Shown: in pieces, positions 9,333 through 16,844 of the stretch | Position numbering within the stretch: the stretch's first letter is position 1 | Layout of the letters: every line of letters begins with the position of its first letter | Assembly: GCA_965263355.1 (NCBI GenBank) | Contig: CBDHHL010000032.1 | Location: 2,912,001-2,976,000 of the forward strand | Source of the DNA: Leptolyngbyaceae cyanobacterium | GTDB lineage: Bacteria; Cyanobacteriota; Cyanobacteriia; Phormidesmidales; Phormidesmidaceae | DNA: 64,000 nt | Reading direction: 5' to 3' | Position numbers and translations under genes: made by a program | The notes under the pieces: model-generated | Told to the model about the DNA's origin: nothing | The model's database searches: none | Seen by the model: the letters and a program-made list of their open reading frames with translations, nothing else

Positions 9333-9405
9333 TGGAGCTAAGCGGACTCGAACCGCTGACTCCCTGCATGCCATGCAGGTGCTCTACCAGCTGAGCTATA
9401 GCCCC
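9333..9405 (-). tRNA. trnA: tRNA-Ala(GGC)
   Basis: Reverse complement GGGGCTATAGCTCAG...CCTGC-ATGGCAT-GCAGG...GGTTCGAGTCC...AGCTCCA. Confidence 0.95.
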
Positions 9406-9733: not shown

Positions 9734-9934
9734 CTAAACGTTGCCTTCTGTTTGCTGGCAACGCTCTAATTCAAGACTTATGGCTTGTAGTCGCTCCCTG
9801 TAGTGATCAACAGCACATCTAAATGATGCCAAGATCACCAAAATTGCATCGGAATTGATGGGGCGTACATCGTTTCTATAGATAGAACGAACAAGCTCGT
9901 TCTTCCCCACCATTCTTTCGGAGTCTTGAACCAT
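9734..9934 (-). CDS. Small hypothetical protein (helical)
   Basis: 66-aa ATG ORF at the islet edge; no recognised motif. Confidence 0.3.
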   Translation of the reverse strand: MVQDSERMVGKNELVRSIYRNDVRPINSDAILVILASFRCAVDHYRERLQAISLELERCQQTEGNV

Positions 9935-10314
9935 GACACCCGCTCAAATCGAAGGTCTTCAAGTTTGCTTCTGTTTTACGGTGTCCATGGTGATTTTGGT
10001 TCCGCTGTTTTGCTGGGTTTTGCCTAACCGTCAGCACGTCCTCTAAAGCCGTCCATGTTTGCCATCCTTAACCTTAGTCCCTCAGGCATCTACCTATGCA
10101 ACTCACTTATCTCAGTACACTTTAAACTCATGCTACATAAGCTTGAGAAATCATCAAAACCGATTTCTAGCTTTGCCTTAGAGGCCTTAACTGCAGAATA
10201 AGGATACTCACAGAGTTCCTGCCAAATTCACTGCACATAACGTTACTTCGCAGGTGTATTACAGCGCATAGGTTCAAGTTTTCAATGTTGAATCCAGTAG
10301 AGTAGACGTCATAT

Positions 10315-10344
10315 AGCCCTTGACTACTGTCAAGGGCTTTTTTT
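10315..10344 (+). terminator. Rho-independent terminator-like hairpin
   Basis: agcccttgac-tact-gtcaagggct followed by a T run on the + strand. Confidence 0.7.
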
Positions 10345-10414
10345 GCTCTGATTGGCGGACACGTTTGTATGGACCCTTTTCTCAATCTGGACTGACTTTA
10401 AACACAATCTGTTT

Positions 10415-12769
10415 TTAGATTTTATCCATGGGTAATAGGGTGCTCATATTGATCTCTTCACGCACCTCACGACTTACGTAGCAGTCTTCCTTAAGGCATT
10501 TAGCTAATAGTTTATTGACGTCATAGTATTCTTTAAGAGCGTTTATTTCAGATTTTGTGAAGTTCCAGTCATGGCCTATATTTCGGGTCTCCAGAATAAT
10601 AGTTCTAAAATGTTCGGTCCATGGCTTTAAATTTTCCATCCACCACCGTTCAGAAATTTCTAGTTCATTCGGTAGTTTTACCTTTAAGTCTGCTAATTGC
10701 TCTTGTAGTTGGGTGTCGATTGAATCATTAATACATCGATCTACAGATGGGATAATACTCTTGTAATTCTTTTCTAGCCTCACTCTTATTTGCTTCTTTT
10801 TTGTCTTTGAGCTTAGATTATTAAATTTAAGAATGCTTTTCTGAATTTCTAAGCAGTAGTTTAAAACTTTGATTAGGTCTGAATCCAATAAAAGATCTTT
10901 GCTAACTTTTCGTTGTTTAGCGATCGCACTTTCCTTGACTATCAAATTAAAATAAAATACTTGCCCGATCGCTTTAAGGTTAGAAATGTCTTGCTTACTC
11001 TTGATTGAGGCTGATTTATCGTTAAGCCAAGCAAGAAAAAGGCTGATATTTTCATTTTTTTCAACGATTTTATCGATCTCATTTTTGATGAGTTTAATTA
11101 AATAGTCGGCTTGTGGTAGCATACATGCAACTAATAGTAAAACCTCTTGCCATCTGTAGTCGTTGATATGAGTGACGAGTAAATTGAGCAGTTTATTTTG
11201 CTCTTTTGGATCTAGCGTCTTAACGATTTTAAGGCTGACAAAATATTCATGAAATGTTCTATGGGAGAATGAATAAATTCCCTTAGCTACCTCAACAATT
11301 AAACCATGCTGAGCGATCATCGACTTTAGTACTGAGTTACAAGCGGTTTCAATGTCGTCTGGTGCGTAGGTAGACTCGGGTAAATTAGAGATATATTCCC
11401 TGATTTCATATTCAACGGTTTCTTTTTTGAATAAGCCTTCATTTTTTTCAAAGGTAGCGTAGGCTATTTTACTGAGTAAATCTTCTTTTTTATGTTTAGA
11501 GAGCTTTCTATAGGTTTCAGGGCGTTCCACAGCTCGGCTAATATCCCACTTCCGCAATAAAACATCCAGACCTTCTTGATAGAGTTCGGCTTGATTTTTA
11601 GGAAACTCTTCCGATTCCTCAAAGACAATACATAATAATGTTAGTAGTAACGGATTAGTGGCAAGTTCACTAATTTCTTGGTCATCCTTAAGTCGGTTGA
11701 TAAACTTTTTAGTTTTTCGAGGAGACTGTTTAGTAGCAAACCAGTTGCTGACAAAGATAGCAATTTGCTCTTTGGTAAAGTCACATACTTCGACTTCTAA
11801 AAAACGTTCAAATCTATATTCACTTGCGGCTAATCTACAGGTGATAATAAATCTGTTGTGACTAAAAAAATGTGATAATTCTTTTATCTGTCTGATAACA
11901 CGATGAAAATTTTCTTTTCTAACTTCATCTAAGCCATCAAAAAGAAATATGACCCTGGCTTCTTTCAACAGCCTTGCCAAGATTTCTGGATTAACTTTGT
12001 AATGACTTAACTCATTTTCGATATGCGTTTTTAGGTCAACGTCATGGGCTTGATCTTGAAAATCCTTAAGGGATACAAAAATAGGGACATGACCCGGTAG
12101 AAGTTCTGATCGATTTGTAAACGTTGCAATATATTTAAGGAAGGTAGTTTTTCCGGCTCCTGGTTTCCCTAAAATCATCAGTTTTGAGCAATTTTGTAGC
12201 AGCTCAATGCCTGATATTTTTGTTCCCTCAAATAGTCTGGATATATTAAATTTTGGATCGTTCTTCTTGGTACGCTGTTTGATTTTTTCAACTAGATCCG
12301 ATAGCTCTATCCGTCTTTGCGATGGAATCTGGTTAGTAATCTTGACTTCTGTAAAAATATCTTCCACTTCAATGGGCTTGCTCATGTCAAGAATTTGTAT
12401 CTTGCCGCATCTTGCATCAATGAGTTCTTGAGTATCCTGTTGAACTGTTTTGACTAAATCATCAATTGCTGTGTCGATAAGTTGAGCCGTTTGTATCGTA
12501 TCTGAATGTGCTTTTTGGTACATGTCAAGCACCTCTAAAAAGAGGAGCTTAGCCTTTCCCGGAAAATTCCCAGAAGGCATCTTGAACTTTTTATACACCT
12601 GAGTCATCCGAGAGCTGTATCGGTCTCTGGAGATGTTTAATTCTTTGGCAATGACTAAATCTGTCAGTTTAATCTTGGTGAGACGTGCTATAAATGCCTC
12701 TTTCTCAAATGAGTTTAGGCCTTTTTGATCGGCTACCATCTCAAGATATTTTTCAGGGATAGAAGGCAT
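10415..12769 (-). CDS. NACHT-family STAND NTPase with N-terminal HTH and C-terminal helical (NCH2-like) domain
   Basis: Walker A GKPGAGKTT, Walker B FLFDGLDEV, IITCR, NPLLL, FSHRTFHEYF; C-terminus WW..W..RNIGHDWNF..YY..N.LL..CL..CYVS..VR..LLP; AT-rich. Confidence 0.9.
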   Translation of the reverse strand: MPSIPEKYLEMVADQKGLNSFEKEAFIARLTKIKLTDLVIAKELNISRDRYSSRMTQVYKKFKMPSGNFPGKAKLLFLEVLDMYQKAHSDTIQTAQLIDTAIDDLVKTVQQDTQELIDARCGKIQILDMSKPIEVEDIFTEVKITNQIPSQRRIELSDLVEKIKQRTKKNDPKFNISRLFEGTKISGIELLQNCSKLMILGKPGAGKTTFLKYIATFTNRSELLPGHVPIFVSLKDFQDQAHDVDLKTHIENELSHYKVNPEILARLLKEARVIFLFDGLDEVRKENFHRVIRQIKELSHFFSHNRFIITCRLAASEYRFERFLEVEVCDFTKEQIAIFVSNWFATKQSPRKTKKFINRLKDDQEISELATNPLLLTLLCIVFEESEEFPKNQAELYQEGLDVLLRKWDISRAVERPETYRKLSKHKKEDLLSKIAYATFEKNEGLFKKETVEYEIREYISNLPESTYAPDDIETACNSVLKSMIAQHGLIVEVAKGIYSFSHRTFHEYFVSLKIVKTLDPKEQNKLLNLLVTHINDYRWQEVLLLVACMLPQADYLIKLIKNEIDKIVEKNENISLFLAWLNDKSASIKSKQDISNLKAIGQVFYFNLIVKESAIAKQRKVSKDLLLDSDLIKVLNYCLEIQKSILKFNNLSSKTKKKQIRVRLEKNYKSIIPSVDRCINDSIDTQLQEQLADLKVKLPNELEISERWWMENLKPWTEHFRTIILETRNIGHDWNFTKSEINALKEYYDVNKLLAKCLKEDCYVSREVREEINMSTLLPMDKI

Positions 12770-13011
12770 ATTCAGGAACTTAGAAGACTTCCATCTGTTA
12801 TAACATCATATTTCGTTGATATAACATTATGTATAGTCGAGTGATATGACTCTTATAGAAATAGACCGAACAGTGTTGAAAATAAAATGCTGTTGCTAGA
12901 ATTGACATGGGCTGGAATGCATGATCCTCTGATAGCGTTCATTCCGTTTCTAGGATGTCAATCTGTGTAAATGACTTTTGAGTTATTGATTTCAGACGTT
13001 TCCGGAAAAGA

Positions 13012-13060
13012 TCAGCGAAGTCAACAGGTATGTCAATGAAGTCAACAGATATGTCAGCGA
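13012..13060. promoter_or_regulatory. Phased direct repeats (putative operator)
   Basis: GAAGTCAACAG(G/A)TATGTCA at 13017 and 13038 (21-bp period). Confidence 0.55.
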
Positions 13061-13235
13061 CAAATATGCGATTCTTGATATCAATGAGTTCCTGATGTCG
13101 TTGCAATAGTTGAGAGTAAGATCAACGCATATGTTTATGTAAGTTGATTGTTGACATTGTTTAAATCCTGTAGAGATTTTTTGTTGGCTAGAAGAGTTGT
13201 TCGCTGCATTTATTAGTCTAGACTGGTTTAGAGGT

Positions 13236-13568
13236 ATGACTCATTTAATAGAACAGGATTGGTGTGATGATGCGATTCATACACACCGAGAGTTTCTGGC
13301 GTTAGCGATGCATGGAACGTTCAACACAAAGGATGACTTGCATGAATGTCACAAGCCCTGTTTTTTGCCTGCTGATGTTTGTTTGGGAGGGATTGGCATG
13401 GTTTACACCGAAATTACTGCCTTTAAGAAAGGGGTGGTTAGATTAGATGATCATTGGTGGTGGTTTGCTCTCTCTAATGGTGGTATGACTATTTCTCCAG
13501 GGCAACAAATCCATGTTACAGGCCTACAAGGCTACACGTTATTGGTTGAAAGCATTCTGTGTAAGTAG
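13236..13568 (+). CDS. Stand-alone NfeD-like C-terminal OB-fold protein
   Basis: G.V...I...KKGVVRLDDHWWWFA.....ISPGQQIHVTGLQGYTLLVE; GAGGT directly before ATG 13236. Confidence 0.7.
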   Translation: MTHLIEQDWCDDAIHTHREFLALAMHGTFNTKDDLHECHKPCFLPADVCLGGIGMVYTEITAFKKGVVRLDDHWWWFALSNGGMTISPGQQIHVTGLQGYTLLVESILCK

Positions 13569-13612
13569 ACGATTGTGTCGTGTGAATCTTGTTGTGTACA
13601 GGGTGTAGGATA

Positions 13613-13825
13613 ATGGGAGAAAAGAGTTCAAGGATTGGATATACGTTGTATCACTGTCCAAAGTGTTTGAAGCCGTCTTTACTGGAGGTGGATTTCAGTC
13701 TTTATCGGTGTATTGCATGCAGTTCTTTAAAGACTGAATCTAGCCATCAACAAGATAGTGATGATAATCCTCCTTTTTGGTCAATGTTGTTAACGATGTT
13801 CTTTCTGTTAATTATCTTGTTGTAA
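13613..13825 (+). CDS. Small Zn-ribbon protein with a C-terminal transmembrane anchor
   Basis: CPKC...CIAC, then hydrophobic FWSMLLTMFFLLIILL; AGGA before ATG. Confidence 0.6.
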   Translation: MGEKSSRIGYTLYHCPKCLKPSLLEVDFSLYRCIACSSLKTESSHQQDSDDNPPFWSMLLTMFFLLIILL

Positions 13826-14150
13826 GGGCTTCAATGCCCTCTTTGTGATTGTGGTGTGTGTTCTTAAGGAAGACTGCTTGGTTGGCGTGCTTAGTATTTT
13901 GTCAGGTCTAAGATGTTGGGTAAAAGAACGATAGACTAAACTGTGGAATAGATCTGTTATGAACTATTCCGCCTTATTCTTAGACTTGGCATTGTACTAG
14001 GCTAGAGTTTTGATCTGTTATCCAATTGGGTGTGTACCTAAAAATCTAGCCCTGTTTCCATGGCTAGGGTGTAAAAAAAATTAGTGACTCTTGTGTCGTT
14101 GTTAACTATCCGCGATAGAGTCGAAAGACACTTCTCGTCTAACGACTACG

Positions 14151-15224
14151 ATGACCACCCCTGCTAACAATTCACCGACTGTGGATACTGAGGCCTTAAT
14201 CCTGCAATTGCGGCGTAAGCAAGGCAACTGGGTTGCTTGGGCAACTGCCTGTCAAACCCTGCAAAAGTCTGGCATGTCACCCCAAGTAATTTTTGAAGGG
14301 ACTGGCTTTGAGCCAATTCAGCAGAATCAGATTGTTGTGGCGGGGCAGGTCTATCAGTCGATTGTAGACGGAGCTGTCTCAGAATCTGCGTTGGAGCACT
14401 TTACAGCTCGTGGTAGTGACTCCTTGTATGAGCTGCGGATTCTGTCCAAGGAAGATCGGGCAAAAGCCGTACAGTTTATCTACGACCAGGGTTTAGATTC
14501 AGAGCAAGTGCGCGATGTGGCCAAAGCTCTGAAGGAATTTTCATACCGTAGTGATCTGCCCACTGGTTTTACCGATCATCCTGGAGATGCAGTTGCGTTT
14601 TCCTATTGGACCTTTGCCCGCCAGACGTCTGATTTGCAAGCAAGATCACGGCTGATTGCTCAAGGTTTACGGTTTGCCCATAGTGCTGGAGCCCGTGAGG
14701 CCATTGAAAAGTTGCTCACTGACTTTGCTGTTATCAAAGCTAAGTCGGCCCCACGGTTACCCCTATTTCGCTTTGAGACTGATACCGATGTGCCCTATGT
14801 GGTGCCGATGGTGGGCCAATGGCCGATCTCAACAGCTGATTTCCAGGCGGTGCCTAAAATGGAGCCAGACGGGGCGTTTGGCGTTGTGCAATCTACTGGT
14901 GGCCATGCCTGGGTGCCGATGCCGGGATGGCAGGTGGTGCTGACGGCGCAGGATGCGATCGCATTCCTCATGCCATTTAATGCCTTGCCTAGCCAAACCG
15001 ATAGCACTGTGTCTGAGATCGTCTTGGTGTTGGTCGATCGACAGCAGCACACCTGGACTGATGACAGTTACTTCATTATTAATGACGATAGCGGTCAGCT
15101 CGCTATACGCTGGTTTGACAAAGAGCCTGGTATATCCCTGTTAGGTCGAGTAATTGTGATTGTGCGTCCTAAGAAAGTGTTGGATGAAGCCTACACTCAG
15201 GAACTCTGGCAGATTGACGAATAG
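14151..15224 (+). CDS. raf1: RuBisCO accumulation factor 1
   Basis: LRRKQGNWVAW, IFEGTGFEPIQQNQ, GFTDHPGDAVA, APRLP, RPKKVLDE...WQIDE. Confidence 0.93.
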   Translation: MTTPANNSPTVDTEALILQLRRKQGNWVAWATACQTLQKSGMSPQVIFEGTGFEPIQQNQIVVAGQVYQSIVDGAVSESALEHFTARGSDSLYELRILSKEDRAKAVQFIYDQGLDSEQVRDVAKALKEFSYRSDLPTGFTDHPGDAVAFSYWTFARQTSDLQARSRLIAQGLRFAHSAGAREAIEKLLTDFAVIKAKSAPRLPLFRFETDTDVPYVVPMVGQWPISTADFQAVPKMEPDGAFGVVQSTGGHAWVPMPGWQVVLTAQDAIAFLMPFNALPSQTDSTVSEIVLVLVDRQQHTWTDDSYFIINDDSGQLAIRWFDKEPGISLLGRVIVIVRPKKVLDEAYTQELWQIDE

Positions 15225-15256: not shown

Positions 15257-15487
15257 ATGGCCTTAGAACGTCGACTATCGCGAGCAATGTTTGAAGCCAC
15301 TGAACTGGTAGAACTGCGTCAAATTTGCTTTACCCCAGGTCGTGTATTTGAACCCGGCAAGTACATTACCGGCGATTTACCCGATGTGGCATTTACCATG
15401 GGGCTGGTAGAAAAACTCCCACCCGTTCGCGGTAAGAGTGAAGCAATCGCTGATGCAGAAGACGGTGCTGAGAACACCGAAGCATAG
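15257..15487 (+). CDS. Small hypothetical protein downstream of raf1
   Basis: 76 aa, AGGA upstream, host-like composition. Confidence 0.65.
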   Translation: MALERRLSRAMFEATELVELRQICFTPGRVFEPGKYITGDLPDVAFTMGLVEKLPPVRGKSEAIADAEDGAENTEA

Positions 15488-16289: not shown

Positions 16290-16844
16290 CTATCGCAGCT
16301 TTTGCTTGATAAAAGCCAAAATCTTGGCAGTCTGATTTTTGAGCGCAGCTACTTCTTTTTTCAGGGTGGCAACCTCCTGTTTCAACGCTGCAATTTCAGC
16401 CGCACTTTCATCATTGGTCGCAGCGTTAGCCGGTGCAGCAGTAGTCTTGCTGGTGGGACGTACCTTACGCGCCTTAACCATTGATGCCTTAATGGCTTCA
16501 ATTAGTTCTTTTTGCTCAAAGGGTTTCTGAATAAACTCAAAATATTCAAAGGGGCCTGGAATTTTTTCTGTCACTTCTTCCCGCCGACCAGACATAAGGA
16601 CGAGGGGAATTTTTTGGAGTTCTGAGGAAGCTTGAATTTCTTGGAAGACTTCCCACCCGCTCATGCGTGGTAGCAAAAAATCCAGCATGATCAGGTTAGG
16701 CTTTTCGTTGCGAATAGCATCCAACCCTTCAACGCCGTCGGTGGCTTCAAGCACCTCAAAGTTACCCTGGGGCAACATTTCCCGTACGCGCATGCGGATG
16801 ACCCGGCTATCATCGATAACTAAAATCTTATGACTGGCTGCCAC
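16290..16844 (-). CDS. Response regulator (receiver domain plus C-terminal coiled coil)
   Basis: ILVIDDS, LIMLDFLLPRMSG, KPF. Confidence 0.9.
   Translation of the reverse strand: MAASHKILVIDDSRVIRMRVREMLPQGNFEVLEATDGVEGLDAIRNEKPNLIMLDFLLPRMSGWEVFQEIQASSELQKIPLVLMSGRREEVTEKIPGPFEYFEFIQKPFEQKELIEAIKASMVKARKVRPTSKTTAAPANAATNDESAAEIAALKQEVATLKKEVAALKNQTAKILAFIKQKLR

Follow-up and report, generated by a model that had tools for sequence, protein, structure and literature searches.

The 64,000-nucleotide stretch of Leptolyngbyaceae cyanobacterium DNA analyzed here (contig CBDHHL010000032.1 of assembly GCA_965263355.1, positions 2,912,001 to 2,976,000; the whole of it is called the window below) carries a gene for a helix-turn-helix (HTH) NACHT protein that diverges from two small genes, one for a stand-alone NfeD-like OB-fold protein and one for a Zn-ribbon transmembrane (TM) peptide, and the locus, as read from its sequence, presents itself as an XssQ-type regulator with a LuxR-type head, a predicted operator and a recurring NfeD cargo. 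With a probability of roughly two in three, the NACHT protein would be an XssQ-like oligomeric transcription switch controlling nfeD and the Zn-ribbon-TM (Zn-TM) gene. An NLR-like transcriptional switch had already been suggested for this DNA in an earlier note, and that part of the suggestion is favored by the HTH head, the XssQ homology, a candidate repeat array and a recurring divergent NfeD, whereas the fixed three-gene system proposed along with it did not survive.

The large gene (10415..12769, minus strand) encodes a 784-aa HTH-NACHT-NCH2 STAND NTPase, and its description as XssQ-like draws on the open reading frame (ORF) call, Pfam, a structure model and an alignment with XssQ (30% identity over residues 116-783, E 9e-92). 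Pfam and sequence motifs place the NACHT NTPase domain at residues 197-345 (11735..12181, minus strand; PF05729, E 9e-15, 55 bits vs a cut-off of 26.7), where both Walker A (201) and Walker B (275) are intact, and the sensor Arg (ITCR, 309), a GxP-like Pro (370-376) and the winged-helix domain His (501-509) could be located as well. The C-terminus, earlier described as just helical, is indeed helical and turned out to be a named domain, NCH2 (PF22727, residues 688-780, E 2e-29; 10430..10708, minus strand; Pfam), common to XssQ, while the supposed lack of a WD40, TPR or LRR sensor agrees with Pfam, which finds none of these in the protein. An AlphaFold2 model built from 38 sequences has a mean pLDDT of 86, and Foldseek matched it to NLRC4 (E 1.5e-12) and NOD2. 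The N-terminus (residues 1-88, recognition helix 48-61; 12506..12769, minus strand) does fold as an HTH, as had been anticipated, and is of the GerE/LuxR type by both profile and model: a profile of 25 N-terminal domains retrieved GerE (1fse, E 8.8e-6), VpsT and VraR from the PDB, and a model of residues 1-100 (pLDDT 89) aligned best with NarL (Z 7.8, root-mean-square deviation 2.2 over 64 residues), with ranks 1-13 all being LuxR/NarL-type, although the assignment rests chiefly on the sequence profile because Z values below 8 are common among small helical domains.

Across 466 bp from the NACHT gene lies the NfeD-like gene (13236..13568, plus strand; 110 aa, which is the call in the protein collection), followed after 44 bp by the Zn-TM gene (13613..13825, plus strand; 70 aa); all three ORFs of the earlier note hold. 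Pfam, orthologues, codon pattern and Atlas support the former: the window protein itself matches Pfam at E 8e-5, below the gathering cut-off, PF01957 is found in the NfeD of 4/4 relatives (orthologues in genomes G002 and G003 being above the cut-off), Atlas returns 0.90 with PF01957 in 92%, the W-x-A motif is present in the C-terminal OB-like barrel, and the differences from locus L001 fall by codon position as 25/16/45, a coding pattern of substitutions. No Band_7 (SPFH) neighbor occurs in the window or in 7 orthologous loci, which confirms that this NfeD stands without its usual partner, and no TM segment is seen in the protein (maximum 19-residue hydropathy 1.3); the notion of “small membrane-associated effectors” thus fits the Zn-ribbon protein, which has a TM, and does not fit the NfeD-like one, which is soluble and has no membrane anchor. 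The Zn-TM protein (CxxC..CxxC plus a C-terminal TM) belongs to an unnamed cyanobacterial family in which the four Cys are invariant; it has no Pfam or NCBIfam family above cut-off, and a word-indexed protein search returned only itself.

Between the divergent genes, directed toward nfeD, lie four direct repeats that make up the candidate operator (13018..13057, plus strand): AAGTCAA at 13018, ATGTCAA at 13030, AAGTCAA at 13039 and ATGTCAG at 13051, with a mean spacing of 11 bp. The phased A[AT]GTCA[AG] chain is the only one on either strand of the 64 kb, the motif having been derived from these very loci, and 0/5000 intergenic shuffles reach three boxes. The array is kept in 6/7 orthologous loci, with two to four boxes each, and in the seventh (L006) it has been lost together with nfeD. 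After it comes a conserved, promoter-like block (13086..13108, plus strand) comprising GAGTTCC (13086-13092) and TTGCAATA (13101-13108), whose role would be that of a promoter; a TTGC[GA]A-type element is present 3' of a box in 21/54 related loci, the distance being 27-28 nt in 10 of them, and a sigma-70 promoter scan gave a chance-level result (10 vs 12.1 expected).

The boxes seem to follow the recognition helix of the protein encoded next to them. Within the sample from which they were derived, four motif classes coincided with four helix classes in 16/19, 3/4, 8/15 and 4/4 loci, with 0/17 for the rest and no cross-match, and the control regions yielded 0, 1, 0 and 0 of 480. When the motif is relaxed, at least three phased copies of the box are found at 34/54 loci with this helix type and at 0/57 other LuxR-HTH loci, the opposite strand giving 1/54 and controls 8/610. 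Beyond this head type, XRE-like NB-ARC genes have GGAACTT arrays, and HTH-TIR-AAA_35 STAND genes at L060 and L063 face NfeD-SPFH operons across three perfect 10-bp repeats (AAAGTCGATG). Two further array-bearing groups may be mentioned in their own right: a clade of ~1380-aa LuxR-HTH NB-ARC proteins (L218-L232), in which the recognition helix hardly varies, the repeats read A[AT]GTGAG and the gene faces one that evolves fast, encodes 180-340 aa and matches nothing in Pfam, and a single family (L333-L336) in which repetitive elements seem to have been inserted between the NACHT start and the array, displacing the latter.

The neighborhoods of NfeD genes were surveyed. Five relatives each have, besides canonical NfeD-SPFH pairs, a number of additional short NfeD genes. 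A search of 61 genomes of the order with a profile built from these short genes yielded 207 matches, 150 of them listed, out of which 100 regions were examined (the top-ranked 60, minus G002 and most of G001, which had already been seen, then 40 chosen mainly for short reading frames); as the profile included STAND-linked genes, this sample leans toward STAND linkage. The regions provided 99 NfeD calls, 8 of them SPFH-linked, and for 88 of the other 91 the upstream neighbor could be seen. At 30 of these 88 loci the first upstream gene of at least 140 aa was divergent and encoded a NACHT, NB-ARC or AAA_35 protein, while the same families accounted for 1/87 first downstream genes and 3/193 distal genes. 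Paralogue counts, taken from relatives' genomes, put such genes well below 2% of the total: five genomes of the order (30 Mb) hold at least 84 NACHT, at least 54 NB-ARC and at least 31 AAA_35 matches, which overlap. The STAND proteins upstream of NfeD mostly have an HTH-type head, as judged by N-terminal sequence, and the 30, taken together with eight from other genomes and the window protein, form 26 clusters when grouped at 60% identity and 12 when grouped at 35%; as their flanks differ, the pairing does not reduce to a single ancestral locus. The NfeD copies taking part are scattered across NfeD branches (the window protein cannot be placed in the tree, a quick one of 60 columns), and N-terminal TM helices are found in 8/8 SPFH-linked NfeD proteins vs 5/91 of the others. 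As for LuxR-HTH-NACHT loci of this order, 9/13 have NfeD upstream, several of them being search seeds. Stand-alone NfeD genes also occur downstream of CHASE2-domain genes (L108, L111, L112, L114, L116, L125, L131, L154, L183 and L199), after SpoIID (6 loci) and facing NAPRTase (4 loci).

The Zn-TM gene behaves differently from a fixed partner. Its family is found in 46/61 genomes of the order, where its usual neighbors are housekeeping genes, and in 12/151 genomes of the phylum, a few of those being doubtful; no NfeD gene lies within 1.5 kb at 24/30 Zn-TM loci, and 5 of the 6 that do have one were search seeds. The whole trio is seen again at two sites that are not orthologous (L115, and L124 with one intervening gene), and at L281 a Zn-TM gene faces a NACHT gene with NfeD absent. 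An obligate three-gene system is therefore rejected, NfeD being optional and the Zn-TM family mostly unlinked, and of the recurring neighbors once expected around HTH-NACHT homologues the divergent NfeD is real (30/88 vs 1/87), whereas a fixed module finds no support; NfeD and Zn-TM are exchangeable cargo. A further small family, a predicted two-TM microprotein of 76 aa that Pfam does not recognize, is repeatedly encoded next to Zn-TM or NfeD (L266, L268, L269, L271, L273, L274, L279, L009 4330-4566, L018 319-552 and L212).

Several observations weigh against the proposed switch, and the test of the helix-box correspondence supplies the first of them. The helix and motif classes had been fixed in writing before being applied to 53 new loci (52 long enough), and the fixed motif of class I was found in 5/20 of them vs 4/32 in the “other” class, classes II-IV having no members there. 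Most class I misses hold variant arrays that again follow the recognition helix (AFR[TI]RMS[GH]VY with ATGTTAG, R[ST]RM[TS]EIY with ATGTC[CT]GG, FENRMSGVY with TATCTCCC), and for this reason the fixed motif is considered too narrow; the relaxed box and helix classes reported above were, in turn, chosen after the data had been seen, and many of the loci are close kin. A generic three-box chain is present in 5/38 STAND-linked NfeD regions vs 5/337 controls, one of the 8 SPFH-linked NfeD genes (L152) faces a weak NACHT match, and in a second order NfeD lies near just 1/53 new LuxR-HTH STAND loci, some NfeD genes there nevertheless facing STAND genes (L054, L056, L058, L062, L373, L383), once as six tandem copies. 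At the orthologous site itself, the Zn-TM gene of L001 has an internal stop and none was found in L005 and L006; no XssR/XssS-type pair of REC-GAF regulator and hybrid kinase is located near the NACHT gene, and the response regulator of the window (16290-16844) is REC only, with no GAF domain.

Two more of these adverse points, namely that a gene of another kind lies upstream at 58/88 non-SPFH NfeD loci (CHASE2 10, SpoIID 6, NAPRTase 4) and that proteins with unrelated heads (XRE, LuxR and others) have the A[AT]GT core in their arrays, so that the boxes could be recognized by another protein or by the STAND core, would suit a different explanation, in which the repeats are read by some other host factor, or serve only NACHT autoregulation, nfeD and Zn-TM being mere passengers that share the promoter region. 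The scarcity of NfeD near Zn-TM genes (within 1.5 kb at 6/30 loci) points the same way. Passengers, however, would hardly account for box sequences that vary with the recognition helix, for the strand-specificity of the arrays, for the upstream/downstream asymmetry, or for a pairing that covers 12 STAND clusters and scattered NfeD branches, and we regard this explanation as improbable.

That the small OB protein is an output might also be questioned: it could be a feedback partner which, once induced by the STAND protein, binds it (or promoter DNA/RNA) and damps or licenses its activation, replacing the missing sensor. NACHT, NB-ARC and AAA_35 proteins whose heads differ do repeatedly have this one small domain as a neighbor, and at some loci (L003, L005, L054, L056) two to six copies of it stand in tandem; the NACHT protein has no repeat sensor of its own, and MalT is controlled by partner proteins. 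Set against this, most such regulators have no NfeD neighbor, and NfeD faces non-STAND regulators too (PadR, XRE, LuxR response regulators), so that one ligand would be needed for unrelated proteins, and the characterized partner of NfeD OB domains, as given in PMC11222466, is flotillin. A complex prediction for NACHT and NfeD scored 0.00, which weighs neither for nor against a partnership, and feedback of this kind has, in our estimate, little chance of being the correct account. Tandem genes for minimal (~60 aa) NfeD OB domains, two to six at a time, were seen at L054 (4966-6974), L056 and L055, those of L054 and L056 being divergent from an HTH-NB-ARC gene.

The location of the locus bears on whether it serves immunity, as the earlier note supposed. 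The NACHT gene sits among TPR, tRNA, nfeD, Zn-TM, raf1 and recR genes, and its GC content (0.36 vs 0.46 for the window) is as low as had been remarked, yet it is not an islet: it occupies the identical TPR-tRNA-Ala...raf1 site in 7/7 relatives (Leptothoe/Leptolyngbya group), with 63-79% identity and a likewise low GC (0.34-0.40), and on account of this shared synteny recent acquisition is rejected; among the repeats listed for the window there is no tRNA-end duplication. NfeD is divergent from the NACHT gene in 6/7 of these relatives (two copies in L003 and L005), an unrelated 139-aa gene replacing it in L006, and Zn-TM is intact in 4/7. An anti-phage NLR system, in which NACHT would sense infection and induce NfeD and the Zn-ribbon peptide as toxic or abortive effectors, could be argued for from the AT-richness of the genes, their evolving faster than raf1, the adjoining tRNA and the turnover of cargo, and bacterial NACHT proteins can indeed protect against phage, HTH adaptors being listed among their effector types in bioRxiv 10.1101/2022.07.19.500537. 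PADLOC, however, gives one 21-residue P-loop match (E 0.003), NCBIfam EruA reaches 51 bits vs a cut-off of 1000, neither an enzymatic effector nor a repeat sensor is present, the core-genome site is fixed, the Zn-TM family mostly keeps company with housekeeping genes across the order, and the closest characterized relative, XssQ, governs exopolysaccharide synthesis. With no substantial PADLOC match, a stable site and such a relative, the immunity role finds no backing, and we consider it unlikely.

The conserved landmarks themselves, tRNA-Ala(GGC) on the left (9333..9405, minus strand) and raf1 on the right (14151..15224, plus strand), lie outside the module; the TPR gene and raf1 were rejected as members, being conserved at this site only, their recurrence elsewhere not having been seen, though without a systematic count. 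Rfam matched nothing but the tRNA in the window. An unannotated hydrophobic 37-aa ORF (9933-10046, plus strand) has full-length counterparts at 84% identity in L002 and L004, and the longer ORF on the minus strand (9734-9934) is probably no more than its shadow; a strong terminator-like hairpin (10315-10345, plus strand; 10 pairs and a T run, lying in a block that L001 shares at 86% identity) may terminate a small RNA or the transcript of that 37-aa ORF. A perfect 16-bp inverted pair (10480-10495 and 13863-13878) flanks most of the module and may be due to chance, and a 76-aa ORF between raf1 and recR (15257-15487, plus strand) is 89-98% identical in 7/7 relatives and has no family match.

It is established for STAND proteins that nucleotide-driven oligomerization presents their N-terminal heads, and the switch envisaged here would work along those lines: a signal would bring about ADP/ATP exchange and oligomerization of the NACHT protein, the oligomer would align several LuxR-type heads along one face of the DNA, and these would occupy the four boxes, one turn apart, activating (or, less likely, repressing) the rightward promoter and perhaps also setting the level of the NACHT gene itself. 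The closely spaced nfeD and Zn-TM genes would be co-transcribed, yielding an NfeD OB domain, which is soluble, and a membrane peptide with a Zn-ribbon; most likely these would tune membrane scaffolds in trans in a response at the level of the envelope, the biofilm or the filament. That final step is the weakest, and it is proposed because flotillin is a binding partner of NfeD OB domains and NfeD-SPFH operons exist separately in related genomes. NACHT and NB-ARC paralogues are numerous in cyanobacteria and often taken for immune receptors, while XssQ is a proven activator, and the recurrence of the same layout in many cyanobacteria suggests that many of these immune-like STAND proteins are gene regulators. 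The locus and its relatives provide predicted operators for dozens more STAND genes, along with natural helix-box pairs, which makes it directly testable whether an NLR oligomer reads one-turn-phased repeats and which genes are controlled, and the so far unexplained stand-alone cyanobacterial NfeD proteins thereby gain a regulatory context. It might even be, though this is a doubtful extrapolation, that in filamentous cyanobacteria the NLR-type STAND proteins (NACHT, NB-ARC, AAA_35) form a large modular transcription-factor family whose oligomers read repeats one helical turn apart, the recognition helix setting the box code and the lineage-specific soluble NfeD OB protein being a favorite output that links NLR-like sensing to the remodeling of flotillin/stomatin domains.

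Among known systems, MalT and the LAL family resemble the window protein in joining a STAND NTPase to a LuxR-type HTH and in oligomerizing on several boxes, as is predicted here, and differ in having the HTH at the C-terminus, an NTPase that is not NACHT, and a TPR-like sensor. The anti-phage bacterial NACHT proteins share the NACHT module, the window fold matching NLRC4/NOD2, and the domain list of bioRxiv 10.1101/2022.07.19.500537 includes HTH and NCH domains, cyanobacteria being rich in paralogues; the window protein differs in its lack of enzymatic effector and repeat sensor. NfeD-SPFH operons (PMC2636767, PMC11222466) have in common with the window NfeD the C-terminal barrel and its W-x-A motif, whereas the N-terminal TM helices and adjacent SPFH gene are peculiar to the former. 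NfeD is not mentioned in the main text of Kibby et al. (bioRxiv 10.1101/2022.07.19.500537) or in those of Kaur et al. 2020 and 2021, nor does the word appear in 12 supplements of PMC8205485, and a literature search, the coverage of which leaves out most subscription journals, found no paper that ties stand-alone NfeD to STAND proteins or describes a helix-box code.

The closest precedent is XssQ (Slr5058) of Synechocystis sp. PCC 6803, and the belief that no characterized counterpart existed has to be abandoned, as its NACHT-NCH2 body is homologous. In the account of Maeda et al. 2021 (PMC8205485), XssQ, with which the pSYSM NACHT protein SGL_RS00265 was equated by gene order and the paper's description, is a STAND transcription activator of the synechan genes whose head is of the XRE family; it acts below XssS/XssR in turning on xss genes, and in electrophoretic mobility shift assays it binds AAGTTxxAC sites that are either single or in tandem. 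A 2025 preprint (bioRxiv 10.64898/2025.12.18.694786) describes XssQ/XssR as functional in another cyanobacterium, Synechococcus elongatus PCC 7942, and PMC12267927 reports four uncharacterized Anabaena homologues. Both proteins consist of an N-terminal HTH, NACHT and NCH2 (783 vs 784 aa), both genes diverge from an adjacent one (a sugar-transferase gene for XssQ), and both have AAGT-core boxes in tandem, the spacing in two xss promoters being, as we read the record, 12 and 23 bp. The window head, on the other hand, is LuxR/GerE-type and does not align with XssQ residues 1-115, its box is A[AT]GTCA[AG] rather than AAGTTxxAC, its Walker B is canonical (DGLDE) where that of XssQ is altered (NAFDE), and its cargo is an NfeD OB domain and a Zn-ribbon-TM peptide, with no polysaccharide genes nearby. 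As head, boxes, neighbors and cargo differ, the window protein is not an XssQ orthologue, nor is the locus an XssSRQ system, although the protein probably works like XssQ, judging by the shared architecture. For the protein type and the tandem sites, then, XssQ provides the precedent, and the family-wide layout and helix-box covariation allow cheap and decisive tests.

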